In this document: one piece after another, positions 9,510 to 63,198 of the stretch
Layout: each line of letters starts with the position of its first letter
Numbering within the stretch: the first letter of the stretch is position 1
Origin: Bacteroidota bacterium
GTDB taxonomy: Bacteria > Bacteroidota > Ignavibacteria > Kapaibacteriales > HRBIN21
Assembly (NCBI GenBank): GCA_030550275.1
Contig: JAUQPR010000001.1
Span: 177,766-241,765, forward strand
Length of the DNA: 64,000 nucleotides
Direction of reading: 5' to 3'
The notes under the pieces: generated by a model
Databases searched by the model: none
What the model saw: only the letters and a program-made list of their open reading frames with translations
Told to the model about the DNA's origin: nothing
Position numbers and translations under genes: made by a program

Positions 9510-9774
9510 GGATACTGGAACATGCGCTCCACTGACTATGTGGGTGCAATATTACGCAAATTCTCGGAACCGAACAAGCCCTGAAAGCCTACCGAGGACC
9601 CAGTTTGCAGCCGCATGAGTTCGGCAGCTACCGCCGCAGCTCCATTGCCTCTCCGCCGCAGGAGCCCTCGCCTGCCTTGAGGCGGTCCGTAGCGCATGAC
9701 AGCTCCGCCGGCACATCGGCTGAGACAACCCACGGTTTCCTACATGCTGGCTTTGTAGTTTTGTTCCCCAAGCA

Positions 9775-13981: not shown

Positions 13982-16900
13982 CTACTCCTTCCGCCGCCGC
14001 TTCACCGCAGGCTCTGCATTTGCAGACTCCGCATCCACAGGCTTTGCCGCGCTCGGCTGTGCCACCACTCCAACCTCGGCAGCAGTTGCCGTGAGAGTCT
14101 CCTTCCGCCGCCCCTTTGCCACGGGCTCTGCATCCACGGGCTCTGCCGAGGCGCGCTCCAGTTGCGCCAGCTCGGGGAGCTCGCCCTCCACCGAGACGAG
14201 CATGTCCTGGTAATGGCGCAGCCCTGTCCCCGCAGGGATGAGCTGCCCGAGGATGACGTTCTCCTTGATCCCCTGCAGCCGGTCCACTTTGGCTGCCAGG
14301 GCTGCTTCGGTCAGCACCCGCGTGGTCTCCTGGAAGGAGGCTGCCGCCAGCCAGGATTCCGCCTGGAGCGCTGCTTCGGTGATACCCAAGAGCACCGGCT
14401 CCGCCGTTGCCGGCTCTGCATCGCGCGCCTTGGGCGGGCGCTTCTCGCGCTTCTGCAGCTCCAGGACCGTCTCGCGGAACTTGCGGCGCGGCACGACCTC
14501 GCCCACGTGGTACTTGGAATCGCCCGGATCGGTCACGACCACGCTGTTCTTGAGCCGCTCGTTCTCCTCTTGGAATCGGATGCGGTCCACGTAGTCACCC
14601 TCCAGGAACATCGAGTCCCCGGGCTCGACCACGCGCACCTTCTGCAGCATCTGGCGGATGATGATCTCCACGTGCTTATCGGCGATGGAGACGCCCTGCA
14701 TGCGGTAGACCTGCTGGATCTCCTGCAGCAGGTACTCCTGCACCGCTTGCACCCCTTTGATGCGGAGGATATCGTGTGGGTCGATCGCGCCCTCGGTGAG
14801 CCGTTCTCCTGCGCGCACGATATCGCCTTCCTGCACCAGGATGTGCCGGCTGGCAGGGACGCGGTACTCCTTCTGCGTGCGCCCGTCAAAGCTGGTGATG
14901 GTGATGATGCGCTTGCCCTGGTCACGCCCCTCGCCCAGGCGCACCGAGACGGTGCCGTCAATCTCGGCAACGACGGCGGGGTTGTGCGGATGGCGTGCCT
15001 CGAAGAGCTCCACCACGCGCGGCAAGCCACCGGTGATGTCCTGGAGCTGGCGGATCTCGCGCGGGATCTTCGCCACGATTTCGCCAGCGGTGACGCGCTC
15101 ACCATCCTCGACCATCAGATGTGCCCGCGCCGGGATCACCTCGGTGTGCAGCACCGTACCATCATCGCCGAGGATCTCGATGCGCGGCGTCAGCCCCCGC
15201 TCGCGCGGCTCGATGACGACCTTGGTCAGGTGCCCGGTCTGCTCATCGGCTTGCTCGCGGTAGGTGACGTTGGGTCGCAGGTCGCGGTAGCGCACCTGTC
15301 CGGAGACACGCGCCAAGATGAGCGAGTTGTACGGGTCCCACTCGTAGAGCCGCTCTCCGCGCTGTACTGGCTGCCCATCGCGCACGTAGAGCTTGGCACC
15401 CACAGGCAGCTCGTGGCGCACCAGCTCCCGATTCCCCTCCGGTTCGACGATCAGCAGCGTTGCCCCGCGCGCCAGCACGACCTCGACATCCATGCCATCG
15501 TCGGACTCCTGGAGTGCCGAGACCAAGTTCTGCAGGCGCACAATGCCGGAGAACTTCGCCGTAATCTCCGACTGTGCCGCTGCCAGCAGCGCTGCTCCTC
15601 CCGTGTGGAAGGTCCGCAGCGTCAACTGTGTTCCGGGCTCTCCGATGGACTGCGAGGCGACCGTCCCCACGGCTTCGCCTATCTCCACCAGCCGTCCGGT
15701 TGCCAGGTTGCGTCCGTAGCACTTGGCGCACACCCCACGCGGCGCCTCGCAGGTGAGCACCGAGCGGATCATCACGCTCTCGATCGGGCTTTCCTCGATG
15801 CGGCGTGCGGCTTCCTCATCGATGAGCTCACCGGCTCGCACCAGCACCTCTCCGGTCAGCGGATGCACAACGTCCACCAGGGCAACCCGACCCAGCACGC
15901 GCTCGTAGAGCGAGATCTCCAGCTCGCCGCTCTCCTTGATCTCGCGCACCTCGATGCCGCGGATTGTGCCGCAGTCCTCCATCGTAATGGTGACGTCCTG
16001 GGCTACATCGTGCAGCCGGCGCGTCAGATAGCCGGCATCGGCGGTCTTGAGCGCCGTATCTGCCAAGCCCTTGCGCGCTCCGTGCGTGGAGATGAAGTAC
16101 TCCAGGATGCTCAACCCCTCGCGCAGGTTCGAGATGATGGGGTTTTCGATGAGCTCGGCTCCGCTGCCGTAGGCGGTCTTCTGCGGCTTTGCCATCAGCC
16201 CGCGCATCCCGCCCAGCTGCCGGATCTGCTCCTTGGAGCCGCGCGCCTGCGAGTCGAGCATCATCCAGAAGGTGTTGAAGCCGTCCTGGTCCTGCTCCAG
16301 CTCCTTGTACAGGTAGTCAGCAATGTGGTTGGTCGCCGAGGTCCACGCGTCGATGATCTTGTTGTAGCGCTCGTTCGCCGAGAGGATGCCCGCCATGTAT
16401 GCTTCGTGGTAGCGGTCCACCTCCTGCTGCGTCTGCCGGATGATCTGCTCCTTCTCCTTGGGCACGATGACGTCCCCGATGGAGACGCTCAAGCCCCCGA
16501 TCGTGGAGTAGTGGAAGCCCATGTCCTTGAGGGCATCCAGGAACTCCACCGTGCGCGCCAGCCCAACGGTGCGGAAAGCTTCGCCGATGAGCTGCCGCAA
16601 GCGCTTCTTGGTGAGCAGCTCGTTGACAAAGCCCAACTCTGGCGGCACAATCTGGTTGAAGATCACGCGCCCGACCGTTGTCTCGATAAGCTCACCTCGG
16701 ATGCGTACGCGGATCTTGGCATGCAGCTCCACGTGTCCGGAGTCGTAGGCAAGGAGCACCTCCTCCGGTGAGGCAAAGACCTTGCCTTCGCCCTGGGCAC
16801 CGTGGCGCACCTTGGTCAAGTAGTACAGCCCCAGCACCATATCCTGGCTGGGCACGGCGATGGGCTCGCCGTTTTGCGTGTGCATGATGTTGTGCGGCGC

Positions 16901-18403
16901 CAGCATCAGCAGCAGTGCCTCCAACTGCGCCTCGTAGCTCAAGGGCACGTGCACTGCCATCTGGTCGCCGTCGAAGTCCGCATTGAACGCTGTACACACC
17001 AGCGGATGGAGCTGGATGGCTTTGCCCTCGATAAGGCGCGGCTGGAACGCCTGAATGCCCAGCCGGTGCAGCGTCGGGGCACGGTTGAGCAACACCGGAT
17101 GCCCATCGATGACCTGTTCGAGCGCATCCCAGACGACCTCATCCTTGCGCTCGACCAAGAGCTTTGCCCGCTTTGCCGTCCGGGCGTAGCCGCGCTCGAC
17201 CAGCTTCCGGATGACAAAGGGCTTGTACAGCTCGATCGCCATATCCTTGGGCAAGCCACACTCGTGCAGCTTGAGCTCGGGTCCAACCACGATGACCGAG
17301 CGTCCGGAGTAATCCACCCGCTTGCCCAAGAGGTTCTGTCGGAAGCGCCCCTGCTTGCCGCGCAAGGATTCCGCCAGCGACTTAAGCGGGCGCTGCCCGG
17401 CGCTGCGCACCACACGGCGCGAGTTATCAAAGAGCGCATCCACCGCCTCCTGCAGCATGCGCTTCTCGTTGCGCATGATCACCTCCGGGGCGCGGATGGC
17501 GATGAGCTTCTTGAGCCGATTGTTCCGAATGATGATACGCCGGTACAGCTCGTTGAGGTCGGAGCTGGCAAAGCGCCCGCCCTCCAGTGTGACCAGCGGG
17601 CGCATATCGGGCGGAATGACCGGGATGACCTCCAGGATCATCCACTCGGGCTTGTTGGGCTTGTGCCCTTCGCGCGGCAGGAACCAATCCAATACGCGCA
17701 GCCGACGCAGGATGTCTTCGCGCTCCTGCTTGGAGATCGGCTCCTCGGCGAGCCGCTTGCGCAGCGCCCAGTACTCCTGCTCCACATCCAAGCGGCGCAG
17801 CAGCTCGCGCAGCGCTTCAGCTCCGGTCATTGCCAGGAAATGCTCCGGCTCCTCCGGATGCTGCCGCTCCCGCTCTGGGAGACTCTCCAAAATCTGCAGG
17901 TACTCCTCCTCGCTGAGCAGGTCGCCGGTGCGCAGCCCTTCGTTCTCCTTCGAGCCCGGCTGAATGACGACGTAGGACTCGTAGTAGGCGATGCGCTCGA
18001 CGTCGCGGCTGGGCATGCCCAGCACCAGTGCAATTTTGTTGGGCGTATAGCGCATAAACCACGTATGCACCACCGGCACTGCCAGATGGATATGCCCGAA
18101 GCGCTCGCGCCGCACCGAGCGCTGCGTCACCTCCACCCCGCACCGGTCGCACACAATCCCTCGGTAGCGCACTCGCTTGTATTTCCCGCAGGCGCACTCC
18201 CAGTCCCGAATCGGTCCGAAGATCTTCTCGCAGAAGAGCCCGTCACGTTCGGGGCGGAAGGAGCGGTAGTTGATCGTCTCCGGCTTGAGCACTTCGCCGT
18301 AGGAGCGCTCCAGGATCGTCTCCGAGGATGCCAACGAGATGCGCACCCCGGAGAAGCCCTTGCGCGGAATCAGCCAGCTCTGCAGTGCCTGCATGGCATC
18401 CAC
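13982..18403 (-). CDS. rpoC: DNA-directed RNA polymerase subunit beta'
   Basis: N-terminal zinc-binding region ([36 protein letters not shown]), catalytic [14 protein letters not shown], trigger loop and the other conserved blocks. 1473 aa with a repetitive basic C-terminal tail. Confidence 0.97.
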
Positions 18404-18421: not shown

Positions 18422-21400
18422 TTACGGCAGAATCTCCATCTCAAGTCCCAGCCCTTGCAGCTCGCGCTGCAGCACACGCACGGCTTCGGGAACATGAGGA
18501 TTGGGCGTTGGCTTGCCGTTGACCAACGCGTTGTACAGCTCCGAGCGTCCGACGACGTCGTCGCTCTTGAGCGTGAGCATCTCCTGTAGCGTAAAGGCTG
18601 CACCGTAGCCTTCCAGCGCCCAGACCTCCATCTCGCCCAGGCGCTGTCCACCCATGCGGGAGCGCCCGCCCAGCGGCTGCTGTGTGATGAGCGCATAGGG
18701 ACCGGTCGAGCGGGCGTGGATCTTGTCCTCGACCATGTGCACGAGCTTCATCATGTAGATGTAGCCGACGGTAACCCGCTCGTTGAGCGGCTCTCCCGTG
18801 CGCCCGTCGTAGAGGATGGTCTTGCCATCAGGCGGCAACCCGGCTTTGCGCAGCCACTCCTGCACATCCTCCCAAGAGGCGCCATCGAAGACCGGGCTGG
18901 CGAAATACACCCCCAGTTTAGCTGCTGCCCAGCCCAGCGCCGTCTCCAGGAGCTGCCCCAAGTTCATTCGCGAGGGCACACCCAGCGGGTTGAGCACGAT
19001 ATCCACCGGCGTGCCATCGGGCAGGAAGGGCATATCCTCGACGGGCACGATCTTGGCAACCACTCCCTTGTTGCCGTGGCGTCCCGCCATCTTATCGCCG
19101 ACCTGGATCTTGCGCTTCTGCGCCACATAGACCTTTGCCATCTTGAGCACCCCGGGAGGCAGCTCCTCTCCGGCTTCCAGGCGGCTCAATTCGGCTCGAA
19201 TTCGCCGTTCAATCTCCTCGCGCTTGCGATGGTAGTTCGTCAGGAGCTGCCGCACCAGGTGCATCACGTGCTCATCCTCCACCCATGCATCGCCTTCGCC
19301 GGGGATGGGGAGCTTCTCCGGGTGGAATTTGCCCTGCTCGAAGCGCTTGAGCAGCTCCTCCTCCGAGAGCTTCGTTCCGGCGCGCAGCACAACGCGCCCA
19401 TCAATATCGGAGATGCCCAGGCAGCGCTGCCCTTGCAGGAGCTTGCCCAGGCGGAGAACGCACTCACGGTCGAGCCGTCCCAGCTCCTCCCGGCGCTTCT
19501 TCTCCATCTCCTCCCGGCGCTGCCGCTCCGAGCGGGTCCGGCTCTGCCCGTCCTCGTAGAAGTGGCGGCTGAAGAGCCGAGTGTTGATCACCACGCCGTG
19601 TAGCCCTGCAGGGGCGCGCAGCGAGACGTCCCGGATATCTCCGGCTTTATCGCCGAAGATTGCCCGCAGGAGCTTCTCCTCCGGCGTTGGGTCTGCCTCG
19701 CCCTTGGGCGTAACCTTCCCGATGAGGATATCCCCCTCGCGCACGCGCGTTCCCACGCGCGCCAAGCCATTGGGGTCCAGATGGCGAATTTCCTCCTCGC
19801 TGACGTTGGGAATATCGGGCGTGAACTCCTCCTCGCCGCGCTTTGTATCGCGCACCTGCAGCGTGAACTCCTCAATGTGAATCGAGGTGAAGACATCCTC
19901 CGCCACCAGGCGTTCCGAGATCACGATGGCGTCCTCGAAGTTGTAGCCCCGCCACGGCATAAAGGCAACGAGCACGTTCCGCCCCAGTGCCAGTTCGCCC
20001 CGGTCGGTGGCTGCCCCATCGGCAAGTGGCTGTCCTCGGCGCACCCGCTCGCCCACCCGCACCAGCGGACGCTGGTTGATGCAGGTATCCTGATTGGTCC
20101 GCACGAACTTCTTGAGCCGGTAGGTGACCACCTCCGGTTCGTCGAAGCTCACCAGGCGCTCCTCCTCCGAGCGGGTATCATCGTAGCGCACGCGGATCTC
20201 ATCGGCGCTGACGTATTCGACCACGCCATCCCCTTCTGCCAGGAGCAGTGCTCGGGCATCGCGCGCGATTCGGGATTCCATTCCCGTGCCCACCAGCGGC
20301 GCCTCCGGACGGATGAGCGGCACCGCCTGGCGCTGCATGTTCGAGCCCATCAGCGCACGGTTGGCGTCGTCGTGCTCCAGGAAGGGGATGAGTGCAGCCG
20401 ACGCGCTGGTGATCTGGTCCGTGGACACATCCATGTACTCGACCTCCTCCGGCGATACCAGCACGAAGTCGCCGGAGCGGCGTGCATGGACTCGCGGGAC
20501 GGCGATACGCCCATCGGCATCCACCGGTGTGGATGCCGGGGCGATGATCTTGTCCTCCTCCTCGTCGGGGCTCAGGTAGTGAATCTCATCGGTCACCCTA
20601 CCATTGACCACGCGCCGGTAGGGCGATTCGATGAAGCCGTACTCGTTGATGCGCGCGTGCAGCGCAAGGGAGGAGATAAGCCCGATGTTGGGTCCTTCGG
20701 GCGTCTCGATTGGGCACAGGCGCCCGTAGTGGGTGTAGTGCACGTCGCGCACCTCAAAGCCGGCGCGTTCACGGTTCAGACCACCCGGACCCAAGGCAGA
20801 GACACGCCGCTTGTGCGTGAGCTCTGCCAGCGGGTTGGTCTGGTCCATAAACTGTGAAAGCTGGTTGGTGCCGAAGAACTGGTTGATGACGCTGTTGATC
20901 GTGCGGGCGTTGACAAGCTCGGCTGGGGTGAGCGGCTCCTCACCCGAGTAGATGCTCAGCCGCTCCTTAATCGTGCGCGCCATGCGCGACAGCCCCAGCA
21001 TGAGCTGAGCCGTGAGCTGCTCCCCAACGGTGCGCACTCGGCGGTTTGCCAAGTGGTCCTGGTCATCCACATCGCGCCGGTCTTCGCGCACCTCCAGCAG
21101 GTAGCGGATTGTGGCAAGCACGTCTTCGGTGGTCAGGTGCGTTACCTCCAAGGGGACGCTCAGCCCCAGCTTGGTGTTGAGGCGGAAGCGCCCGACGGTA
21201 TCGAGCTCATACCGCTTTGGGGAGAAGAAGAGCCGCTCCAGCAGTTGCGCTGCGCTCTCCAGATCCGGCGCCTCGCTGGAGCGCATTTGCTTGTAGATGT
21301 ACTCCAGCGCTTCCTCTCGGCTCCGCGTGGGATCCTTGGAAAAGGTGCGTACCAGCACGGGCTCGTTGTCCAGGTCTTTGTGGCAGAACATGCGCACCGA

Positions 21401-22318
21401 CTCGACCGTCGCGCGCTTGATTTGCTCCAGCAGCTCCTCGCTGAGGATCTCGCCGCGGTGGGCAAGGATCTCGCCCGTGCTCAGATCCACAACCTCCCCG
21501 GCGATGCGCCGTCCAACGTACTCGGGAAGCTGCTCCACTGGAACGATTTCGGAAAGCCCGAAGAGCTCGTCGATCTCCTCGTCCGAGGAGAACCCCAACG
21601 CCCGCAAGAAGGTGGTCACGGGGAACTTCTTCTTGCGGTCAATGTAGGCGTACATGATGTCGTTGGTGTCGATGACGAACTCCAGCCATGCGCCCCGCAA
21701 CGGAATGATGCGGGCGCTATAGATGGGCAATCCGGTCGCATGCAGCACGCGGTCGAAAAGCACCCCTGGCGAACGGTGGATTTGCGAAACGATGACGCGC
21801 TCGGCTCCGTTGATGATGAAGGTCCCCCGATCCGTCATCGCCGGGATGCTTCCCAAGTAGACCTCCTGCTCCACCGGCTCGATGTAATCCTCCGAGTCGG
21901 GCGAGACCTTGCTGGACAAGCGCAGCCGTGCCTTGAGCGTGTAAGCGTACGTCAGCTCACGCTCTCGGCACTCCTCTTCGGTGTACTTGGGGGGCTCGAT
22001 GGTGTAGGAGAGGAACTCCAACTGGTACACGCCGGAGGCATCTTCGACGGGGAAGTTGCTCAGAAATGCCTGCTGCAGTCCGACCGGTCGCCGCTGCTTT
22101 GGCGGCACATCCGCTTGCAGAAACTCCTGGTACGAGCGGAGCTGGACCTCCAGCAGGTCTGGGTACTCGACCGCCCACTTTGTCTTGGCAAAGCTTATGC
22201 GCTCGCGCAACTTCACCTCGTTGGCTTGCCCGTTATGGGAAGCTACTTCAGTGTTCGGCGTCAGCGGCTGAACACCGTTGGAGTTCTCTCCGGCACGGTC
22301 ACTGCGTCGGCGCGCCAT
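18422..22318 (-). CDS. rpoB: DNA-directed RNA polymerase subunit beta
   Basis: Conserved beta blocks throughout ([35 protein letters not shown], rifampicin-cluster regions). 1298 aa with a ~35-aa N-terminal extension. Lies 18 nt upstream of rpoC. Confidence 0.97.
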
Positions 22319-25483: not shown

Positions 25484-25556
25484 CACGGGTGGAGGGACTC
25501 GAACCCCCAACCTGCGGTTTTGGAGACCGCTGCTCTACCACTTGAGCTACACCCGT
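25484..25556 (-). tRNA. tRNA-Trp (anticodon CCA)
   Basis: Folded by hand: ACGGGTG-TA-GCTC-AAGTGGTA-GAGC-A-GCGGT-CTCCAAA-ACCGC-AGGTT-GGGGG-TTCGAGT-CCCTC-CACCCGT-G. 73 nt, CCA not encoded. Confidence 0.85.
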
Positions 25557-25557
25557 G

Positions 25558-25629
25558 AGCTGATGGCCGGATTTGAACCGGCGACCCCGTCCTTACCAAG
25601 GACGTGCTCTACCACTGAGCTACATCAGC
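25558..25629 (-). tRNA. tRNA-Thr (anticodon GGU)
   Basis: GCTGATG-TA-GCTC-AGTGGTA-GAGC-A-CGTCC-TTGGTAA-GGACG-GGGTC-GCCGG-TTCAAAT-CCGGC-CATCAGC-T. 72 nt. Only a 1-nt spacer to tRNA-Trp. Confidence 0.8.
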
Positions 25630-25638
25630 CCGATGGAG

Positions 25639-25711
25639 AGCGGGAGACGGGACTCGAACCCGCGACCCTCGGCTTGGGAAGCCGATGCTCTACCAACTGA
25701 GCTACTCCCGC
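25639..25711 (-). tRNA. tRNA-Gly (anticodon CCC), copy 1
   Basis: GCGGGAG-TA-GCTC-AGTTGGTA-GAGC-A-TCGGC-TTCCCAA-GCCGA-GGGTC-GCGGG-TTCGAGT-CCCGT-CTCCCGC-T. 73 nt. Confidence 0.8.
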
Positions 25712-25717
25712 ACTCAG

Positions 25718-25790
25718 AGCGGGAGACGGGACTCGAACCCGCGACCCCGAGCTTGGAAGGCTCGCGCTCTACCAACTGAGCTACTCCCGC
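25718..25790 (-). tRNA. tRNA-Gly (anticodon UCC)
   Basis: Same body as copy 1, but anticodon arm CGAGC-CTTCCAA-GCTCG. 73 nt. Confidence 0.8.
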
Positions 25791-25796
25791 GCTCAG

Positions 25797-25869
25797 AGCG
25801 GGAAACGGGACTCGAACCCGCGACCCTCGGCTTGGGAAGCCGATGCTCTACCAACTGAGCTATTCCCGC
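25797..25869 (-). tRNA. tRNA-Gly (anticodon CCC), copy 2
   Basis: GCGGGAA...TTCCCGC acceptor stem, otherwise identical to copy 1. 73 nt. Confidence 0.8.
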
Positions 25870-25870
25870 G

Positions 25871-25954
25871 TGGGCAGGGGAGGATTCGAACCTCCGAAGG
25901 CGTTCCGCCAGCAGATTTACAGTCTGCCCCGTTTGACCGCTTCGGTACCTGCCC
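25871..25954 (-). tRNA. tRNA-Tyr (anticodon GUA), long variable arm
   Basis: GGGCAGG-TA-CCGAAGCGGTCAAACGGG-GCAGA-CTGTAAA-TCTGC-(long variable arm)-GGAGG-TTCGAAT-CCTCC-CCTGCCC-A. 84 nt. Aligns closely with E. coli tyrT. Only 1 nt from tRNA-Gly copy 2. Confidence 0.8.
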
Positions 25955-25999: not shown

Positions 26000-27112
26000 T
26001 CAGGCTACCTCCGCGCGCGCAACCCGGACAAGCCGCAGGAATTCATCGAAGATGTACGTGGCATCGTGCGGTCCCGGCGCCGCTTCGGGATGGTACTGCA
26101 CCGACATCACCGGTAGACTCCGATGCTGCATCCCCTCCAGCGTGCCGTCATTGAGATTGATGTGCGTCACCTCCAGCTCCGGCGGCAGAGTGTCCGGGTC
26201 CACCGCAAAGCCATGGTTCTGCGACGTAATCTCCACCACACCCGTGTGCAGGTTCAACACCGGATGGTTGGCTCCATGGTGCCCGAACTTGAGCTTGTAG
26301 GTCCGCGCCCCAAGGGCAAGCCCCAGGAGCTGATGCCCCAGGCAGATCCCCAGAATCGGATATCCCCGCGCCACCAGCTCCCGAACCAGTGGCAGCGCGT
26401 AGGTGATTGCGGCCGGGTCCCCCGGACCATTTGAGAGCACGATCCCATCGGGCGCGCACGCGAGCAGCTCGTGCAGCTCCACCCGCGCTGGGAACACACG
26501 CACTCGGCAGCCGCGCCGCGCCAAATTCCGCAAAATGTTGCGCTTAACACCGAAATCCACCACCGCAATCAGCGCTCCCGTCTCCAATCCCTCATCCGTC
26601 CACCAGTACGGGGCGCGGCACCCTACGCGATCGGTCAAATCCTGCCCCTCCATCGGCGGCAGCGAACGGGCACGCTCGACTAACTCCTCCGGCGACGCCG
26701 TTGCCGAGATCACCCCGCGGAGCGCCCCATACTCCCGAATCATCCGTACCAGCATGCGCGTGTCCACCCCTTCGATCCCCACTACCCCCTCCCGCTGCAG
26801 GTACTCCTGTAGGCTCAGCTTCGCCCGCCAGTTCGAATAGACCGGCGAGCACTCGTGCACGACGATTCCTTCAACCTGCACCCGCTCCGACTCGCCGTCC
26901 TCCAAGGTGATGCCGTAGTTGCCGATGTGCGGGTAGGTGAAGGTGACAATCTGCCCGCGGTAGCTTGGATCGGTCAGGATCTCCTCGTACCCGCTCATCG
27001 CGGTGTTGAAAACCACCTCTCCGGCAGCCTCCCGCTCCACAGCTCCGATGGCATATCCGGCAAAGACGGCTCCGTTTTCCAACGCCAAGTAGGCTCGAAC
27101 TCGTCGGTGCAT
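26000..27112 (-). CDS. carA: Carbamoyl-phosphate synthase small (glutamine amidotransferase) subunit
   Basis: N-terminal CPSase small-chain region ([16 protein letters not shown]...[37 protein letters not shown]) and a class I GATase with catalytic Cys in [12 protein letters not shown] and HGANHPV. Start at 27112. Confidence 0.9.
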
Positions 27113-27137
27113 GGGGCTTGGTCGACTGCGTCGGGGA

Positions 27138-27166
27138 CGCAAATTAGCAAGACTGTGTAATTTGCG
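27138..27166. promoter_or_regulatory. Inverted repeat CGCAAATTA-(11 nt)-TAATTTGCG in the divergent carA / HNH intergenic region; candidate operator or promoter element
   Basis: Perfect 9-bp arms at 27138-27146 and 27158-27166 in a locally AT-rich patch, between the carA start (27112, minus) and the HNH gene (27245, plus). Confidence 0.35.
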
Positions 27167-49776: not shown

Positions 49777-50685
49777 TTACGTTCCCTGCCCGGCGATGGC
49801 GCGGTCGAACTGCTCGTAGTCGGCGTAGCCAATCAGGGCGTAGAGCTCCGCTCTGCTCTGCATGCGCGGGAGATACTCCTGCGTCGAGCCGCTGCGCCGG
49901 AGGTGCTCGTAGAACTCCTGCATCGCACGGGCAGCAACCCGGAGCGCCGATACCGGGAAGAGCACCATTTCATAGCCTACGGCGAAGAGCTCCTCTGCCC
50001 TCAGCGGCGGAGTTTTGCCAAACTCGGTCAGATTTGCCAGCAGGGGTATCCCGGGAAGCGCCTGGCGGAAGGCGCGAAACTCCTCCAGCGAATGCAGCGC
50101 TTCCGGGAAGATGGCGTCAGCACCGGCGGCAACGTACTGCCGTGCCCGCTCGACTGCACCCTCCAGCCCTTCGATAGCGCGGGCATCCGTGCGGGCAATC
50201 AGGACCAACTGCGGCAGGAGCCGCTTGAGTGCCCGCACCTTCTGGACCATCGCCTCCGCCGGCAGCAGGCGCTTCCCCTCCAGATGCCCGCACCGCTTGG
50301 GCATCTCCTGGTCCTCCAACTGCACAGCAGCCACACCGGCGCGGACCAGCTCGCGTGCGGCTCGCACGGTGTTGAACAGCTCTCCAAAGCCGGTGTCAAT
50401 GTCTACCAACAAGGGGAGCTGCGTTGCAGCAACGATGGCAGCCGCTCGGCGGGCAACCTCCTCTGGCGTGAGCATCCCCACATCGGGCAAGCCCAGACTC
50501 GCCGAAAACGCAGCTCCCGAAAGGTAGAGCACCGAAAATCCCGCCTGCTTCGCCAGCAATCCCGCCAGTGGGTCATGCGCCCCAGGGATGACAAGCCCTC
50601 CGGCGCGCATTGCCGCACGGAAGCGCTCGGCAAGCTGTGCCTGCTCGGCGAAGGGTTCCAGAAGCCACGCCATTGCAATCCTCAC
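49777..50685 (-). CDS. prpB: 2-Methylisocitrate lyase (PEP mutase/isocitrate lyase superfamily)
   Basis: KRCGH catalytic motif (EDQEMPKRCGHLEGKRLL), DIDTGFG, ~300 aa as for PrpB. Co-directional with prpD and prpC. Confidence 0.85.
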   Translation of the reverse strand: MRIAMAWLLEPFAEQAQLAERFRAAMRAGGLVIPGAHDPLAGLLAKQAGFSVLYLSGAAFSASLGLPDVGMLTPEEVARRAAAIVAATQLPLLVDIDTGFGELFNTVRAARELVRAGVAAVQLEDQEMPKRCGHLEGKRLLPAEAMVQKVRALKRLLPQLVLIARTDARAIEGLEGAVERARQYVAAGADAIFPEALHSLEEFRAFRQALPGIPLLANLTEFGKTPPLRAEELFAVGYEMVLFPVSALRVAARAMQEFYEHLRRSGSTQEYLPRMQSRAELYALIGYADYEQFDRAIAGQGT

Positions 50686-52097
50686 GGAAGCGCCAACTCC
50701 TCCAGGAAGCGGTCAACCGGCAGCTCCGGCAAGCCCGCGTCTTCGGCAACCAGGCGGTAGATGCGTTCGGCTTTCCGCTCGGGGTAGACCCGCAGCAGCG
50801 CCGTCCGGAACTTCTCCCGCAGCAGGGGAAGCGCCTCTTGACGCCGCCGCCGATGCCCCAGCGGGAACTCCACTACGACGCGCTCACTCTGGGTGCCATC
50901 GCGGAAGAAGAGCTGCACCGCATTGGCGATGGAGCGCCGCTCCGGGTCCAGGTACGCACGGCTGAATTCGGGGTTCTCCACCACCTCCATCTTCGCGATG
51001 AGCTCAGGGATGCGCGGGTCGGAGGCGATAGGCTCCAGGTAGTGCTCGTAGCGCAGCTCGCCGTAGAGCAGCGCCACTGCCGTCATGTACTGCAGGGAAT
51101 GGTCGCGATCGGCGGGATTGCGGAAGGGTCCGGGCTTATCGATGATGCGCACGGCGGACTCTTGGGTCTCAATCCGAATGCGCTCAAGCTCGCCCAGCCG
51201 CTCGCGCACCAACGGGTGCAAGCGGAGAGCGGCTTCGACGGCGGTCTGCCCGTGAAATTCCGCCGGATATGCGACCTTGAAGAGCACATTCTCCATGACG
51301 TAGCTGCCCAGCGGGCGCTCCAGCCGGAGTGGTTCTCCGCCGAGCACCACCGCTTCAAATCCCCAGACGGGCGCCGTCGCCGCAGTGGGGTATCCGGGTT
51401 CGCCGCGCAATGCCAGGAGGGCAAACCAGAGCCCGCGGCTGGTGGCATCGGCAGCTGCCCAAGACTTCCGCGGTCCCGTGTTGGGGAAGTGCCGGTACGT
51501 CCGCAGCGGCGCACCGTCAATGAGCGCATTAGAGAGAGCGCTGAGCACCTCCTCGCGCCCTCCGCCCAGGAGCCACGTTGCCACCGCTGCCGATGCCAGC
51601 TTGACGAAGTGCACATGGTCGAACCCCCGGCGGTTGAGGCTCACCCCCAACGCCAACACGCCCTGGATCTCGTACGCCTTGATGGCAGCCGTCAACACAT
51701 CGGCAACGCGGTAGGGCGCCTCTCCCCAGCGCCGACGACGCCGGCTTGCGTACTCCGCCGCCGCAAGGATTGCCCCAAAGTTGTCCGACGGATGCCCCCA
51801 CTCCCGCGCAAGCCAGGTGTCGTTGTAATCCAACCAGCGGATGAGCGCCGTGATGGCGAATGCCCCGTGAAGGGGATCTGCCACGTACGGCGTTGCGGGC
51901 ACATGGACCCCATCGGGAACGGCAGCAGAGCAGATGGGCGGGAGCAGCTTCGTGCATTCGGGATGCTCCGTTGCCGCAGCCGCACACGCCAGGGAGTCCA
52001 TCAAAGCGATGCGCGCGGTCTGGTACGCCTCCTCGCTCTCAATGTGCGCGGAGAGAACGTAGTCGGCAATCTCCTGCAGGACCGGATCGTACGCCAT
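50682..52097 (-). CDS. prpD: 2-Methylcitrate dehydratase (MmgE/PrpD family)
   Basis: PrpD-family N-terminus MAYDPVLQEIADYVL...ARIALMDSLACAAAA; 471 aa. 4-nt overlaps on both flanks. Confidence 0.88.
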   Translation of the reverse strand: MAYDPVLQEIADYVLSAHIESEEAYQTARIALMDSLACAAAATEHPECTKLLPPICSAAVPDGVHVPATPYVADPLHGAFAITALIRWLDYNDTWLAREWGHPSDNFGAILAAAEYASRRRRRWGEAPYRVADVLTAAIKAYEIQGVLALGVSLNRRGFDHVHFVKLASAAVATWLLGGGREEVLSALSNALIDGAPLRTYRHFPNTGPRKSWAAADATSRGLWFALLALRGEPGYPTAATAPVWGFEAVVLGGEPLRLERPLGSYVMENVLFKVAYPAEFHGQTAVEAALRLHPLVRERLGELERIRIETQESAVRIIDKPGPFRNPADRDHSLQYMTAVALLYGELRYEHYLEPIASDPRIPELIAKMEVVENPEFSRAYLDPERRSIANAVQLFFRDGTQSERVVVEFPLGHRRRRQEALPLLREKFRTALLRVYPERKAERIYRLVAEDAGLPELPVDRFLEELALP

Positions 52098-52100
52098 CGC

Positions 52101-53243
52101 TTATGCCCCGACGCGAAGTCCACGAGGTCCGGTGTACACCACGCGCGGACGGTAGAGCCGATTCTGCGCATGCTGCTCGACGATGTGCGCCAGCAGCCCA
52201 GCCGAGCGGGCAGCAAAGAAGATCGGCGTGTACAGCTCGATGGGGATGTCCAGCAGGTAGTACACGGGAGCGGCGTAGTAGTCCAGGTTTGGGTACAGCC
52301 CCTTCTCCGCGTGCATCACGGCTTCGCCGCGCTCGCACATCTCCAGCAACTCCGCTCCAGTGCCCTTGGCTGCGACGAGCTCGCGCAGGGTCTCCTTGAG
52401 CAACTGCGCCCGCGGGTCCATCCGGCGCATGTAGACGCGATGCCCAAAGCCCATGATGCGCTCCTTGCGGGCGAGCTTCTCACGGATGAGCCGTTCCAAA
52501 GCATCGGCGCTACCCGCCTCCAGGAGCATGTACATCACCGCCTCGTTTGCACCGCCGTGCAGTGGTCCCTTCAGCGATGCCACTGCCGCGGTCAACGCGC
52601 CGTAGGCATCTGCCAGAGTGGAGGCAACCACGCGCGCGGCAAAGGTGGAGTTCGGCAGCTCGTGCTCGCTGTAGGCGATCAAGGCTTGGTCGAAGGCACG
52701 GACTTCGGCTGCCGAAACCTCGCGGGCAACGATGGTGTGCAGGAAGTTCTCTGCAAAGCTGCGCTGTGGGTCGAACGGTATGGGCGGCTGCCCGCCAGCA
52801 ATGCGGGTGAGGTTTGCCACGATTTGGGCAATCTGCCCGATGAGCCGAGGCGCTTTGCGGCGCTCCTCCTCTGGATCGGCACTGTTGGCGTTGGGATCGA
52901 ATCCCGCCAGCGCCGAAACCGCCGTCCGGAGCCGGTCCATTGCGTGCATGGCTGGCGGCAGTAGCGCAAGAATCTCGTAAACTCGCTGCGGGACCTCTGC
53001 CGTGCACAGCTCCCGTTCGAGCTGCTGGCGCCGCTGTGCATCGGGGAGCTGCTCATCCAGCAAGAGCCCTACGACGTCAACATAGCCGACCGTGCGGATG
53101 AGCTCCAGGAGGTTGTACCCGCGCACAACGATCTCCTCCTGCTCCGTGTCCAGAAAGGAGATGCGCGTCTCGGCTGCAATAACCCCCTCCAATCCGGGGC
53201 TGTAGGATGCAGACTGCATACGCACCGCCGTGAGAGGTTGCAC
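52101..53243 (-). CDS. prpC: 2-Methylcitrate synthase / short-type citrate synthase
   Basis: Citrate synthase family motifs (GFGHRVY, catalytic His/Asp regions); 380 aa is the short PrpC-type length; adjacent to prpD and prpB. Confidence 0.82.
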   Translation of the reverse strand: MQPLTAVRMQSASYSPGLEGVIAAETRISFLDTEQEEIVVRGYNLLELIRTVGYVDVVGLLLDEQLPDAQRRQQLERELCTAEVPQRVYEILALLPPAMHAMDRLRTAVSALAGFDPNANSADPEEERRKAPRLIGQIAQIVANLTRIAGGQPPIPFDPQRSFAENFLHTIVAREVSAAEVRAFDQALIAYSEHELPNSTFAARVVASTLADAYGALTAAVASLKGPLHGGANEAVMYMLLEAGSADALERLIREKLARKERIMGFGHRVYMRRMDPRAQLLKETLRELVAAKGTGAELLEMCERGEAVMHAEKGLYPNLDYYAAPVYYLLDIPIELYTPIFFAARSAGLLAHIVEQHAQNRLYRPRVVYTGPRGLRVGA

Positions 53244-53275
53244 ATTTGGACGGATGCAAAGCTACAAAACGCCGC

Positions 53276-54559
53276 TCAGTGCCCTTGGGAATCCGCCTCC
53301 GGCTCGATGAAGACATTGCGGTAGGCTTCCTCCGGCGGCGGATACGGGCGCGCGAGCACCTCTTCAACTGCCGCGCGGAGCTGCTCCCGGATCTGCTGGC
53401 GCAACTGCTCGATCTGCTGCGCCGTCAACACCCCGTGGCGTTGGAGCAACTGCTCGTAGCGCTGCAGCGGATCGCGCGCTTCCCAGTAGCGCCGGATCGG
53501 CTCAGGGACGTATCCAGCGTCATCATGCTCGGCATGCCCGCGGACACGGAAGGTGATGGTCTCCAGCAGCGTAGGACCCTCTCCGGCGCGGGCACGTTCG
53601 ACAGCGCGGCGGCAGGCATCGTAGACCAGCTCCACATCCGTTCCGTCCACGACCTCCCCGAAGCAGCCGTAGCCCAGGGCACGGTCGGCGAGGAATTCGC
53701 AGGCGTACTCCAGTTGGTTGGGCGTGGAGTAGGCGTACTGGTTGTTCTCGATGACGACCACCACGGGCAAGCGCTGGACAGCTGCGAAGTTGACCGCTTC
53801 GTGGAATTCGCCCGTCTGGGCACCACCATCGCCGATGTAGGTGAGCACGACCGTATCCTCGCCGCGCAGTCGTGCCGCCAGAGCGTAGCCCACAGCCACC
53901 GGCAGCATCGCCCCCAGATGCGAGATGTTGCCGTAGATGCGCCGCGCGGGATCGGCGTAGTGAACTGTGCCATCGGTGCCCCGGGTCAGGCTCCCCTGAC
54001 GGGCAAAGTGGGTTGCCAGCAGCGCCTTCAGGTCCTGTCCCCGCACAAAGTGGGCGCCAATATCGCGGTGCATCGGGAAGATGGGATCGGTGGGGCGCAG
54101 CGCATACGCCGTGCCAACGGCGGTGGCTTCGTTGCCGATCTGGGCAAACACCCCTCCGAAGACTCGCCCCTGCCGATAGAGGCGGATGAGCGCCAGGTCG
54201 AACTCCCGCGCCCAGATCATGCACTCCAGCAGGAAGCGGCGCTGAACATCCGACAGTGCAGGGCTTCTCCAGGGCTCCTTCACTGGGGCTTCCACATCCG
54301 GCTGCTGTGGGGAGGGGCGCCATCCCTGAGGCGGACGCTTCGGAATGCCCAGCACCGCATCGCGCAACGCCCGAGCCGCCTCCTGCGGAAAGGCGCGCAG
54401 AAGCCGCTCCACCGGAAGCATCCCTTCAGCAATCCAGCGCTCCAGTTCCTGTTCGGAGCTCCCCAATCGTGCAGCGAGCTCGGCGCGGGAACATCCGCAC
54501 TCGTTCTGCAATCGCTCCAGCAGTAGCTCCCACAGTTGTGCTGCGTGCATGGCTCTCAC
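53276..54559 (-). CDS. TPP-dependent 2-oxoacid dehydrogenase E1 alpha subunit with an N-terminal ~100-aa XRE-type HTH extension
   Basis: E1-alpha core from about aa 102 ([44 protein letters not shown]...[36 protein letters not shown]...[10 protein letters not shown]). The N-terminal region contains [24 protein letters not shown] (Cro/C1-like HTH). Start codon is 3 nt from the hslU stop. No E1-beta or E2 nearby. Confidence 0.8.
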
Positions 54560-55947
54560 AGGATGTACTTGCTCACATCCACCTGGCGTACGATGGCGCT
54601 GAGCCGCCGGCGAACGTATTCGGCATCAATCCGGACATGGCGCTCCGGCAAGATATCCGGCGCTTGGAAGAGCAGCTCCTCCAGCAGCGTTGTCAGGATC
54701 GTGTGCAGCCGCCGTGCTCCGATATTGGCAATCTCCTCATTGACGCGCGCCGCCATTGCAGCAATCTCCCGAATGGCGTCCTCGGTGAACTCCAGCTCCA
54801 CGCCCTCGGTCGCCAGCAGCGCCTGATACTGCTTGATGAGCGCGTTCTCCGGCAGGGTCAAAATCCGCACGAAATCCTCCTCCGTCAGGCTGTGCAGCTC
54901 CACTCGAATGGGGAAGCGCCCCTGCAGCTCCGGGATGAGGTCTGAGGGCTTTGCAACATGGAATGCCCCCGAGGCGATGAAGAGGATGTGGTCCGTGCGG
55001 ACCGGACCGTACTTGGTCATCACCGTTGTGCCCTCCACGATGGGGAGCAGGTCGCGCTGGACCCCCTCGCGCGAGACATCCGGTCCGACGTGGGTCCCGC
55101 CCGTGGAGGCGATTTTGTCGATCTCGTCGATGAAGACGATGCCGAGATTCTCGGCGCGGAAGATCGCTTCGCGCACGACGCTATCCATGTCAATGAGCTT
55201 ATCGGCTTCCTCCTGCTCCAGGAGCGCGCGGGCTTCGGCAACGGTCATCTTGCGCTTCTTGTAGCGCTTGGGGGCAAACTGTGCGAGCATCTCCTGGAGC
55301 ATATTCAGCTCGCCAGGTGCCATCGGACCGAACATCTGCTGCAGGAAGGGCACGCTGTCCTTGACGTCCAGCTCGATCACGCGGTCCTCCAGCTTGCCCT
55401 CCTGGAGGAGGCGCTGCATGTGCTCCCGTGCCCGCTGCTGCTCCTCCACCGCCTCTGGGCTGAGCGCTTCGAATGCCAATCCAGGATGGCGCATCGGGGG
55501 AACCAGGATGTCCAACAGCCGTTGCTCGGCAGCCTTGCGGGCTTGGCGGCGCACCTGCTCGATCTTCTCGGCGCGCACCATCGCAACGGCAACGTCTACA
55601 AGGTCGCGGATCATGGACTCAACATCGCGCCCGACGTAGCCGACCTCAGTGAACTTGGTCGCCTCCACCTTGACAAAGGGAGCGTGAGCAAGCTTTGCCA
55701 GGCGGCGCGCGATCTCGGTTTTGCCCACACCGGTTGGACCGATGAGGATGATGTTGTTGGGCATAATCTCCTCGCGCAGGCTGCCCTGAACCCGCTGGCG
55801 ACGCCAGCGGTTGCGCAAGGCGATGGCAACAGCGCGCTTGGCTTCGTGCTGTCCGATGATGTACTTGTCCAGCTCCTGCACAATCTGCTGCGGTGTGAGC
55901 TCCTGTATCCGCCGGAGCAGCTCCTCGCTTGCCTCGGTGTGCTGCAT
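54556..55947 (-). CDS. hslU: ATP-dependent protease ATPase subunit HslU
   Basis: [26 protein letters not shown], Walker [29 protein letters not shown] (Walker B), sensor motifs. 463 aa. Confidence 0.95.
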
Positions 55948-55950
55948 GGC

Positions 55951-56499
55951 TCAGAGCTCCTCGATTGTGAACGCGTCGTTGGTGTAGATGCAAATGCCAC
56001 TGGCGATGCGCAGGGACTCCTCAACGATCTCGCGCGCCGAGAGCTCCGTATGGCGCATCAGCGCCCGCGCTGCCGCCAGGGCAAATCCGCCTCCGGAGCC
56101 AATCGCGATGACCTGGTCATCGGGCTCGACTACCTCGCCCGTCCCGCTGACAAGCAGCACCTGCGAGGTATTCATCACAATGAGCATCGCCTCCAGGTGG
56201 CGGAGGTAGCGGTCGGTACGCCACTCCTTTGCCAACTCAATTGCAGCCCGAAGCAGGTGTCCACGAGTGCTCTCCAGCTTCTCCTCGAAGCGCCCGAGCA
56301 GGGTCATCGCATCCGCAACACTGCCGGCAAACCCCGCCAGGATGCTCTCATTGTACAGCCGCCGTACCTTGCGCGCATGCTGCTTGAGCACGGTGTTGTT
56401 GAAGGTCACCTGCCCATCCGCTCCTAATGCAGCTCTGCCGTTGCGGATGACCCCGATGACCGTTGTACTGTGGAACTCGCACGCCTTTGCGTCCGACAC
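55951..56499 (-). CDS. hslV: ATP-dependent protease subunit HslV (start codon uncertain)
   Basis: [22 protein letters not shown]...[24 protein letters not shown]...[17 protein letters not shown]...[12 protein letters not shown] aligns end to end with E. coli HslV. There is no ATG directly before the catalytic Thr-Thr; the nearest in-frame start is GTG at 56497-56499 (11-aa leader). The track ORF reads through upstream to 57801 as an artifact. Confidence 0.85.
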
Positions 56500-56931
56500 T
56501 CCCGAATGCAGAGATGGAGCAACGCCACTCCCAGCGCTCCAGAGAGCATGGCTGCCAGCAGTGGGAGGCTGCCCATGGTGGGATCGTATTCGAGCAGATG
56601 CCATCCCCAACGTCCCCATACGATGAGACTTCCCAGGCATGTCAGCACAGCGGCGACGAGCGCGGCGCGCGGGAACCTTCCCCACAACCGCCGTAGCACC
56701 AAGAGCTGCACGGAGATGAAACCCGTGCCCAGCCCCATCCGGTAGCGCGGATGCCCCTCCAGCAGCAATGCCGCCACAGCTCCCAGCAGCGCCAACGCAA
56801 TCGCTCCACCGAGCAGGAGGCGAGCCGCCATTGCCCCTGTTTCCGCCGTTGCGGCTCATAAGACGGCAAGGCAGCGAGCTTAGCGCTATTATTTTTGCCC
56901 GAAGCGGTGTGCACACCAGTTGGCACCCAGG

Positions 56932-61218: not shown

Positions 61219-63198
61219 TTACGGGACAAGGCAGCGCACCTGCTGCGCCTCCGGTGGCAGGTACCAGCGCTGCGCCATGTCGGCAGGAAGCGGATGGGAA
61301 TCCGCCAACACGACCGGTGCAGCCACGTTTGTCCGCTCCAAGAGTATGTCCAGTTGCCGGTCGTGCCAGCGTAGTGTTGCCCGCAGCCATTCCAGCGGGC
61401 GCGGCAGGAGCGGCTTCACCCACACCCCCTGTGGATCTGCGTGGATGCCCAGAAGATCGCAAACCACCAACTGCACCAGCTCCGACCAATTCCCCGCCAG
61501 AATCCCCACCTGCGGACACGGGGGCACAGGGCGCCACCCGTAGACAGCAAACCACGCTCCCGAACGCGCCTGAGGTAGCCCGCCGAGCCATTCCAACACC
61601 CGCCAGAGGACCTGCTCCCGGCGAGCCCGCAGCGCCGCCCGTGCAATCCACAGCGACGCAAGAGGATACGCCCCAGGCGAATCCGATTCCGACGACACAT
61701 GGTATCGCCCGTATCCCCCACCCTCCCAACGCTGATTCCACAGGAGCTCCAGCCGGTCCAGAGTTCTCTGCGCCAGCTCCGAATCCGGCTCCACAATTCC
61801 CCAGACTATCGGGAGCGCGCAGGTTGCATCGGGTTCGAGCCAGTGGCGCGACTCGGTCCGCAGCGGGACCTCCGGGGGAATCGCCGGATGCTCCTGTACA
61901 AGCAGCTCCTGCTGCACTGCTCCGGAAAGCAGCCGCCGTTTGACCAACATCCCCTGCTCCACAAGCCGTAGATGTGGATGCTGCAGCATTGCCCGGCGCA
62001 GCCGTACCGATGCCATTGCCCAGCGATGCGCCCATCGCCCCTGCCCTATGCCCTCGGCAAGCTGCGCTGCTGCCTCCAAGCCCAGCACAGTCCACATCTG
62101 ATACGCCAACTCGACGCCGTCCTCCACCCCATGGAGCGGCGTCCGCCCCCAGTACTCACGCCGGTTGTGCAGGAGAAAGCCACGCTCAACCCGAAACTGC
62201 GGACGCAATGGATACTCCGCTACGGAACGGAGCCGTTCCCAATAGCCCCGCACCAACGCCCAATCGCCCGTCCAGCAGGTGTAGTAGTACAGGCTCACCA
62301 GGAGAATCCCGTTGTAGTCCAGCGGTGCCAGTTCCGGGACAACGCTTTCCTCGGGATTTCTGACCGCTCCGTCTGCGGTGGTACACTCACGCAGAATCCG
62401 CTCCAGAACTCGCCGTGCTCCCTCGTGATGCCCGCTCAGCACCAATCCGATTGCCCCTGTACACCCGTCGCGCACGTGTTCTCGCGTATGCTCCCACAGG
62501 CTGGTATTCATACGCCCGGAGGCAGCCACCACAGCCGGAAGTTGCCAACACGCGCTCCGGAAGAGCTGCTGCAGCAGTGGAACGGGGCTTTCCACCCGGG
62601 CGACGCGCTGCCAGTACTGCACCGCTTCATCCTCGAATGGCTCTGCGGGAGCCCATCGGCAGCGAAGCCGGGTTGGTGCTCGCTCCAGCCAGTACTCCAC
62701 TGCCAATTCCCGATGCTCGTGCGCCGAGAGGCGAAATTGTGCCTCCAGCGTGTATTCCTGAACCCCAGTGCGCAGGCACACTGAGCATCCCTGTTCCGCC
62801 CACAGCTCTATCCGGCGATGGAGTCGTGGGGTGCTCCGGTCAGGACAGTACACGCGCTCCCGAACCCGCAGCGGCGGCGCCTCCCACTCAGCAATGACGG
62901 CGGGCACGACCGTGTGCTCATCCCAGTACACCCAGCACTGCTGCGGCGATGAGGAGTGCCCATTGCACCACAACTGGAGCTGCGTATTGGCAAGCCCAAG
63001 CTGTGGATGCATCGTCAGCGCTGCCCGCTTCGGGGTGAGCTGCTCCGGATCCATCACCAACAGCCCGATGCGGGTGCCCTGCTGCGGACTGTACTGAAGG
63101 GCTGCGCTGATATGCCCATTGCCCACCAAGAAATAGGCAACCTCGGGGAGCTCCGTGCGCACATCCTCTGGACCGTTTCGGGGATCGTCCCAGTGCAT
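61219..63198 (-). CDS. Glycoside hydrolase family 15-like protein (glucoamylase/glucodextranase/trehalase-like, (alpha/alpha)6 barrel)
   Basis: 659 aa with an N-terminal beta-sandwich-like region and a C-terminal region rich in W/Y and acidic residues as in GH15 catalytic domains (GIVEPDSELAQRTLDRLELLWNQRWEGGGYGRYHVSSESD...LWIARAALR). Family call from overall pattern, not a strict motif. Confidence 0.6.
   Translation of the reverse strand: MHWDDPRNGPEDVRTELPEVAYFLVGNGHISAALQYSPQQGTRIGLLVMDPEQLTPKRAALTMHPQLGLANTQLQLWCNGHSSSPQQCWVYWDEHTVVPAVIAEWEAPPLRVRERVYCPDRSTPRLHRRIELWAEQGCSVCLRTGVQEYTLEAQFRLSAHEHRELAVEYWLERAPTRLRCRWAPAEPFEDEAVQYWQRVARVESPVPLLQQLFRSACWQLPAVVAASGRMNTSLWEHTREHVRDGCTGAIGLVLSGHHEGARRVLERILRECTTADGAVRNPEESVVPELAPLDYNGILLVSLYYYTCWTGDWALVRGYWERLRSVAEYPLRPQFRVERGFLLHNRREYWGRTPLHGVEDGVELAYQMWTVLGLEAAAQLAEGIGQGRWAHRWAMASVRLRRAMLQHPHLRLVEQGMLVKRRLLSGAVQQELLVQEHPAIPPEVPLRTESRHWLEPDATCALPIVWGIVEPDSELAQRTLDRLELLWNQRWEGGGYGRYHVSSESDSPGAYPLASLWIARAALRARREQVLWRVLEWLGGLPQARSGAWFAVYGWRPVPPCPQVGILAGNWSELVQLVVCDLLGIHADPQGVWVKPLLPRPLEWLRATLRWHDRQLDILLERTNVAAPVVLADSHPLPADMAQRWYLPPEAQQVRCLVP

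Follow-up and report, generated by a model that had tools for sequence, protein, structure and literature searches.

In a 64,000-nucleotide stretch of a Bacteroidota bacterium genome (contig JAUQPR010000001.1, positions 177,766 to 241,765; hereafter the window), one gene on the minus strand encodes an alpha subunit of the E1 component of thiamine-diphosphate-dependent 2-oxoacid dehydrogenases (E1-alpha) that carries a predicted helix-turn-helix (HTH) domain at its N-terminus. As judged from its sequence and that of its relatives, this gene is the product of a lineage-specific fusion in which an HTH of the phage-CI/Cro type was joined via a proline-rich linker to the N-terminus of E1-alpha. The gene and its parts are the following.

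53276..54550, minus strand: fusion gene for HTH domain, linker and E1-alpha (424 aa), with its ATG at 54550 and its stop codon at 53276-53278, from the list of open reading frames (ORFs) and the sequence.
54350..54550, minus strand: predicted five-helix Cro/C1-type HTH domain, residues 1-67, with helices at residues 2-18, 22-28, 33-42, 47-53 and 55-67, the HTH being helices 2-3.
54287..54349, minus strand: proline-rich linker, residues 68-88, with G76-W77-x-P79-x-P81-x-x-P84 invariant across the clade in an alignment of nine N-termini.
53333..54208, minus strand: E1_dh catalytic core, residues 115-406 (Pfam PF00676, E 1.1e-71).
53741..53833, minus strand: thiamine-diphosphate/Mg motif GDG...NN, from G240-D241-G242 to N269-N270, invariant in 17 homologues.

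The N-terminal extension amounts to about 85 residues beyond a standard E1-alpha, and several features of the DNA and its orthologues indicate that it is real and translated. Among 5.8 billion proteins searched there is an identical one (P0001 in a public protein collection), and eight further clusters of 420-422 aa match with 69-72% identity at 92-97% query coverage; the other homologues among the matches listed measure 320-381 aa (most of them 331-357 aa) and begin near query residue 85-105. When the nine N-termini are aligned, 15 columns are invariant, including G19, A26, G30, R38, W39, P46, P55 and the linker motif. Across six loci, codon 1 is the only start codon that is conserved in position, the ATG lies 0-7 nt past the hslU stop codon, and one of these loci (L010) has no start codon whatever between codons 75 and 114. 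The GC content at the three codon positions of the extension (0.77/0.51/0.70) resembles that of the core (0.74/0.45/0.79), which is a coding pattern, and the median ratio of nonsynonymous to synonymous differences per site (pN/pS) stays below 1 throughout (0.51 in the HTH domain, 0.46 in the linker, 0.19 in the core); these values are uncorrected and come from saturated synonymous sites. An earlier, sequence-only reading of this DNA had thought the extension probably translated, and this expectation is borne out by the conserved start, the protein-level conservation and the coding GC pattern; the contrary case that it had named, of homologues uniformly starting near residue 100 downstream of 300 non-coding nucleotides, is not what we see, with eight clusters keeping the extension. 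The same reading had the gene itself right but not its end at 54559, where a GTG overlaps the hslU stop codon; this upstream start is rejected since the orthologues align to the ATG at 54550 instead. That ATG lies 5 nt from the hslU stop codon, not the 3 nt given earlier, while the first internal methionine (residue 111, nt 54220) had been placed correctly. The fusion protein is translationally coupled to hslU, its gene being the last of the hslV-hslU unit. An assembly chimera was considered and discarded, the same architecture being present in NCBI, JGI, ENA and Logan assemblies.

The N-terminal domain is assigned to the Cro/C1 (XRE) HTH superfamily, with the phage CI repressor family PF07022 as its closest predicted relative. 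On the full-length window protein, HTH_3 (E 0.089) and YdaS_toxin (E 0.035) both remain sub-threshold, and the isolated domain matches HTH_3 with E 0.0073; its bit scores are 16.8 against a cut-off of 23 for HTH_3, 14.3 against 22 for PF07022 and 17.1 against 30 for YdaS. Weak HTH matches recur in all nine members of the clade (HTH_17 in 9/9, Phage_CI_repr in 8/9, MerR_1 in 8/9 and YdaS_toxin in 5/9), the best E values among the relatives being 1.7e-4 for PF07022 and 1.2e-5 for YdaS_toxin. Alignment by hhalign to the HTH domains of four proteins (P0162, P0158, P0218 and P0139) gave a probability of 98.3% and an E value of 1.2e-14 over 77 columns, with targets that were chosen from the domain profile's own matches, though they are strong PF07022 members by themselves. 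AlphaFold, run on the nine-sequence alignment, predicts five helices with a predicted local distance difference test score (pLDDT) of about 90 over residues 1-60, and a Foldseek search of the PDB with this model gave no individually significant match, the top matches all being lambda-repressor-like domains. Our profile of the domain found 643 matches among 1.84 billion representative proteins, of which only the HR21 cluster spans the whole profile; the remaining ones cover the HTH core only, in proteins with tandem HTHs or in CI/LexA-like repressors. Of the single-domain matches, the longest are those to PF07022 domains, and the nearest sequence relatives are proven families of DNA-binding repressors. 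A closest relationship to MerR or HTH_17 was rejected, as these longest matches and a C-terminal CPExxW..GE motif point to PF07022.

With the HTH domains of phage CI repressors (PF07022; phage 186 CI-like and S24 LexA-like repressors, P0162, P0158 and P0218 among them) the fusion domain has in common five predicted helices and the pattern LGVSxxxhxxW+xRGxhPxxxhhxxCPExxhxWLxxGE. Unlike in these repressors, its fusion partner is an enzyme rather than an S24 peptidase or the C-terminal domain of CI, and the window copy further departs from the family by its PF07022 score below the cut-off and its acidic charge. The description of the domain as a textbook Cro/C1 HTH in the sequence-only reading (the motif that it quoted is residues 20-43, nt 54422-54493 on the minus strand) holds at the level of the superfamily, as seen from the hhalign result and the five-helix model, but not for the Pfam scores of the window protein. 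In 8/9 members the segment from helix 2 to helix 3 is basic, with a net charge of +1 to +5 and the motif LGVSxxxLxRWRRxG, and its RWR(R/Q)xG end at helix 3 is compatible with DNA binding. No second copy of the domain was found elsewhere in the 64-kb window. The linker behind it has a pLDDT of about 50 in the model of the isolated domain versus 82-94 (residues 71-100) in the full-length model, which may mean that this conserved segment with its GWxPxP lies packed against the E1 core.

The E1-alpha core is otherwise ordinary and apparently catalytically intact. It scores 241.7 bits against the PF00676 cut-off of 22 and covers profile positions 7-299 of 300, and similarity to standard E1-alpha proteins starts at about residue 88. 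G240-D241-G242, N269-N270 and the loop residue His339 are invariant in 17 homologues of both the long and the short form; the cofactor motif aligns with GEG...NN of the E1-alpha of human branched-chain 2-oxoacid dehydrogenase (BCKDH) and His339 with its His291. The complete core with GDG...NN and a loop histidine that had been recognized from the letters alone is thus confirmed. Among solved structures, the nearest chains are human BCKDH E1-alpha (2J9F, 1DTW), the alpha subunit of the branched-chain 2-oxo acid dehydrogenase of Thermus thermophilus (1UM9) and the E1-alpha of Geobacillus stearothermophilus pyruvate dehydrogenase (PDH; 1W85), all from heterotetrameric alpha2beta2 enzymes, to which residues 88-419 align end to end with E values from 7.5e-47 (2J9F) to 2.7e-45; residues 1-87 have no counterpart in these chains. 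The full-length model (pLDDT 83; predicted template modelling score, pTM, 0.80) has their fold, with TM scores of 0.65-0.81 and the GDG...NN motif and catalytic loop histidine kept, and its Foldseek top 50 are all BCKDH or PDH E1-alpha chains of alpha2beta2 enzymes (1olx_A with E 1.3e-22). The window protein differs from them in its approximately 85 additional N-terminal residues of HTH and linker and, with regard to typical heterotetrameric E1-alpha, in that its gene does not adjoin one for E1-beta. Among NCBIfam models those for PDH E1-alpha come nearest yet stay under their cut-offs (TIGR03181 with 272.6 versus 411.35 bits and TIGR03182 with 233 versus 393.85 bits), and pyruvate, branched-chain and acetoin are the candidate substrate classes.

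The distribution of the fusion is very narrow. Its nine clusters at 90% identity collapse to one cluster at 50% identity among 1.84 billion representative proteins, from carriers that the sources name 'bacterium HR21' and 'Bacteroidota bacterium', the complete metagenome-assembled genomes GCA_002898295.1 ('bacterium HR21') and GCA_006214125.1 being two of them, and in the comparison of the domain profile with these representatives no E1 outside this cluster carries the HTH domain. The literature that we searched holds nothing on HTH/E1 fusions or on DNA-binding E1 subunits, so the earlier remark that this architecture was not a recognized one agrees with both surveys.

Neither E1-beta nor E2 nor E3 is encoded in the window as far as can be told from tblastn with two E1-beta queries and from Pfam assignments to 30 of its ORFs, and none was found within 10 kb in the nine syntenic loci, the longest of which spans 21 kb. 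Elsewhere, 77 of 80 E1-beta loci from species genomes have an E1-alpha gene just upstream, and so do the loci L008 and L009. However, in the nearest short-form relatives of the fusion (336 aa, about 65% identity, named Candidatus Kapaibacterium by the sources) E1-alpha is solitary as well; at L007, L093 and L094 it follows era with no beta gene nearby. The 675-kb contig JANWWF010000001.1 of Kapaibacterium sp. SKYG14 holds both partners, with a solitary alpha gene at about 418.6 kb (L094) and a solitary beta gene at about 66.9 kb (L028), roughly 350 kb apart, and four further metagenome contigs of this sister lineage (L095-L098) carry solitary beta genes with 81-85% identity. From these unlinked genes of the sister lineage we infer that the fusion clade, too, probably has an E1-beta elsewhere in its genome, as its closest relatives do. 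The word orphan in the sequence-only reading is therefore apt for the locus, whereas a protein without any partner is unlikely given the unlinked pair of SKYG14. We searched for the clade's own beta subunit in proteins with the L008 E1-beta and with a Kapabacteria E1-beta in which non-conserved Lys residues were changed to Arg in favour of this lineage, in genomes with an E1-beta alignment and in metagenomes with the SKYG14 E1-beta; that it is not among the matches listed says little on its absence. The Arg/Lys ratio was considered as a marker for E1-beta of high-GC lineages and dropped as uninformative, since SKYG14 with 49% GC has an Arg-rich E1-alpha nonetheless. As a separate observation, L008 encodes, besides its adjacent E1-alpha and E1-beta, a fused E1 alpha-beta protein of 831 aa (3767-6262) 1.7 kb upstream, so that genomes like this one can hold more than one E1 system.

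Our preferred reading, which we put forward tentatively and with less than even confidence, is that the fusion protein would be a bifunctional trigger enzyme in the manner of PutA or BirA. The fusion E1-alpha would pair with an E1-beta whose gene lies in another part of the genome, the alpha2beta2 tetramer thus formed would bind DNA through its two HTH domains, and this binding would couple the state of the 2-oxoacid dehydrogenase to transcription, with the separately promoted methylcitrate unit prpCDB downstream or its own operon as the candidate target. A more specific version, in which the two CI-type HTHs bind an operator of prpCDB or of their own operon and are switched by 2-oxoacid or thiamine-diphosphate occupancy or by recruitment to the E2 core, seems doubtful to us. 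Fusions of enzymes and DNA-binding domains that regulate their own pathway have been summarized (PMC5397151), and like the trigger enzymes PutA, BirA, NadR and archaeal RbkR treated there, the protein appears to combine a domain of DNA-binding type and an intact enzyme in one polypeptide. Its gene similarly adjoins a metabolically related operon, and an oligomeric E1 could supply the two-fold symmetry of an operator. Unlike these precedents, the fusion HTH is of the Cro/C1 type rather than a ribbon-helix-helix or winged helix, the enzyme part is a single subunit within a multi-enzyme complex, and the distribution is tiny. The sequence-only reading had offered two roles, of which a regulator that co-opts a thiamine-diphosphate-binding fold is unlikely as the sole one because no other part of the protein is under as strong a constraint as the catalytic core, while a decarboxylase that supplies propionyl-CoA to PrpC is possible.

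If the trigger-enzyme reading is true, this would be the first E1 component of a 2-oxoacid dehydrogenase, a class of complexes among the best-studied enzymes, to act directly as a transcription factor, and it would link the production of propionyl-CoA or another acyl-CoA to the expression of the methylcitrate cycle. A central enzyme of carbon and amino-acid catabolism would then join the short list of trigger enzymes, with a very direct connection from flux to transcription beside the methylcitrate genes. In practice, the narrow uncultured lineage and the possibly degenerate window copy set limits to this.

Several observations weigh against DNA binding and thus against a trigger enzyme. The window copy of the HTH is acidic (net charge -2), with ERWIAEG where its relatives have RWRRSG, and only 32% identical to that of the other members versus 78% for the core; both features suggest relaxed constraint in its lineage. 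Since basic residues retained by the other eight members have been lost from it, DNA binding, if the clade's HTH has this function at all, is probably weakened in the window organism. The HTH domain evolves at about three times the rate of the core, no HTH profile reaches its curated Pfam cut-off on the window protein, and the clade's own E1-beta was not among the matches listed in the protein, genome or metagenome searches. No operator was found either: comparing the two spacers upstream of hslV (PD40/hslV) and of prpC (E1-alpha/prpC) in six loci, too few and too diverged for footprinting, revealed the promoter box described below but no further k-mer and no palindrome that is conserved. A linker ordered on the core could moreover limit the freedom of the two HTH domains to reach one operator. 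Finally, the fold itself can be purely structural. HppE, HEPD and MPnS, whose N-domains are among the fold matches of the HTH domain, are phosphonate enzymes in which an XRE-like helical domain at the N-terminus, regarded as structural, precedes a catalytic fold (cupin) unrelated to E1.

These enzymes are a precedent for the alternative that the HTH-like domain does not bind DNA but is a module of structure or protein interaction that supports assembly or stability of the E1 tetramer, attaches the tetramer to E2 or to some other partner, or forms a cap over the active-site region. We regard this as less likely than not, though only slightly less likely than the trigger enzyme. It would account for the gain of confidence of linker and HTH in the full-length model (residues 71-100 with pLDDT 82-94; pTM 0.80), a gain that points to packing against the core, and for the lack of an operator in the two spacers. 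It also fits the window copy, where helix 3 is acidic and yet the hydrophobic core and the invariant residues G19, A26, G30, R38, W39, P46 and P55 are kept; if the domain is structural, this retained hydrophobic and glycine pattern would suffice. On the other hand, the basic RWR(R/Q)xG end of the recognition helix in 8/9 members is typical of DNA-binding CI/Cro domains, and the closest sequence relatives are, unlike for the N-domains of HppE, HEPD and MPnS, genuine repressors that continue into an S24 peptidase or a CI C-terminal domain. Over 100 orthologues of the short form among the matches listed also manage without such a module. Should the domain not bind DNA, it would be another case in which the fold of a repressor has come to serve a structural purpose, and a lesson for annotation that an HTH does not always make a regulator.

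We consider it improbable that a chance fusion with an adjacent small regulator gene left the extension behind as a remnant with little or no function, one that is tolerated because the N-terminus is a permissive site and that is in decay in the window lineage, if not more widely. Its confinement to one cluster at 50% identity, the HTH being the fastest-evolving part and the loss of basic residues in the window copy would agree with decay, as would the 32% identity and the pN/pS of 0.70-0.80 (with saturated synonymous sites) between the window HTH and the others. HTH pairs without the window copy, however, give about 0.41-0.62, likewise with saturated pS, and the full-length ORF is open in all nine clusters without frameshifts or a new internal start. 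The fifteen invariant columns, which include the glycine/alanine pattern of the HTH and the linker GWxPxP, and the high predicted fold confidence argue against a relic as well.

Far less probable is a true orphan without a beta partner that acts alone as a metabolite- or thiamine-diphosphate-sensing transcription factor, using the E1 fold as a ligand-binding domain only. The lack of E1-beta, E2 and E3 across the window and the nine syntenic loci and of a clade E1-beta among the matches listed would be expected from it; the latter says little, though, and the unlinked alpha and beta genes of sister-clade genomes offer another explanation for the former. Such a sensor is also hard to reconcile with a core under stronger constraint than any other part of the protein and with its invariant catalytic histidine and Mg/thiamine-diphosphate ligands, and the cofactor site of alpha2beta2 E1 enzymes requires the Pyr domain of the beta subunit. 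Hardly credible, finally, is an annotation artefact with a true product that starts near residue 85-110 behind 250 nt of untranslated leader: the 331-357 aa of most homologues among the matches listed would suit it, but there is no conserved internal start (and none at all between codons 75 and 114 in L010), the extension is kept as protein sequence across clusters with coding-type GC at its codon positions, and six loci have the ATG 0-7 nt past the hslU stop codon.

The gene order from a small membrane ORF through hslV, hslU, the fusion gene, prpC and prpD to prpB recurs unchanged in 9 loci, which represent at least 7 independent assemblies, with genes for a PD40 protein, 4-hydroxyphenylpyruvate dioxygenase (likewise above its NCBIfam equivalog cut-off) and a glutamate-dehydrogenase-like protein divergently transcribed upstream of the hslV unit. 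Around the fusion gene the following features were assigned.

55951..56499, minus strand: hslV (Pfam Proteasome family on orthologues), start uncertain.
54556..55947, minus strand: hslU (Pfam AAA_2 and ClpB_D2-small), with its stop codon 5 nt before the fusion ATG.
53257..53270, minus strand: putative Bacteroidota-type -7 promoter box TAGCTTTG (TAnnTTTG) with a T-run upstream, in the E1-alpha/prpC spacer, in six syntenic loci.
52101..53219, minus strand: prpC-type (2-methyl)citrate synthase (Pfam Citrate_synt; NCBIfam NF009004 with 531.6 bits versus a cut-off of 508).
50682..52097, minus strand: prpD, 2-methylcitrate dehydratase (TIGR02330 with 652 bits versus a cut-off of 458).
49777..50685, minus strand: prpB, methylisocitrate lyase (TIGR02317 with 370.7 bits versus a cut-off of 354.4).

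The placement of the fusion gene between hslVU and prpCDB had been recognized correctly, with prpB and prpD passing their NCBIfam equivalog cut-offs, but a single array of these genes is weakened by a conserved promoter box in front of prpC. A T-run followed by TAGCTT(T/C)G stands at the same place in 6/6 loci, as TAGCTTTG in five of them and as TAGCTTCG in L003, and is the only conserved 8-9-mer of this spacer. The consensus TAnnTTTG of the -7 box is documented for Bacteroidetes (PMC6847099, PMC7366714). By this box, prpCDB is predicted to have its own promoter, which would make the fusion gene the last cistron of the hslVU unit. Read-through from the fusion gene into prpC is possible because no terminator was found between the two genes. 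The search for promoters of the sigma-70 type had no result, and among Rfam families only six tRNAs were found. A near-identical box, TTTGTAGTTTTG, lies at 9752-9763 on the plus strand, 12 nt before a methyltransferase ORF that starts at 9775.

For prpC, the mechanically called start at GTG 53243 (380 aa) is probably wrong, as the orthologues (371 aa) align to the ATG at 53219 (MQSASYSPG) and the GTG lies only about 14 nt past the -7 box. The catalytic Thr-Thr codons of hslV begin at 56466, and the GTG at 56499 is the only start within 40 codons upstream, implying an 11-residue propeptide or an unusual start; in relatives, the length of hslV varies with the gene caller from 158 to 244 aa. Directly upstream and overlapping this start region, the window has a hydrophobic ORF of 135 aa (56424-56831, minus strand) without Pfam or NCBIfam match, and ORFs of 120-134 aa without Pfam match are found at the same spot in L003, L004 and L012.

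Further observations concern other parts of the window. An ORF of 659 aa (61219-63198, minus strand) has no Pfam or NCBIfam match and is syntenic in L004, L005 and L010-L012 (660-672 aa, no Pfam match), with the counterpart in relatives partly overlapping the end of the glutamate-dehydrogenase-like gene. Six tRNA genes are arranged head to tail at 25484-25954 (minus strand) and adjoin the gene for the small subunit of carbamoyl-phosphate synthase (26000-27142); this array shares its strand with rpoB (18422-22318) and rpoC (13982-18403), which are located further along. The 1488-aa ORF at 5043-9509 (minus strand) has a C-terminal FlgD_ig domain as its sole Pfam match (E 3.7e-9).

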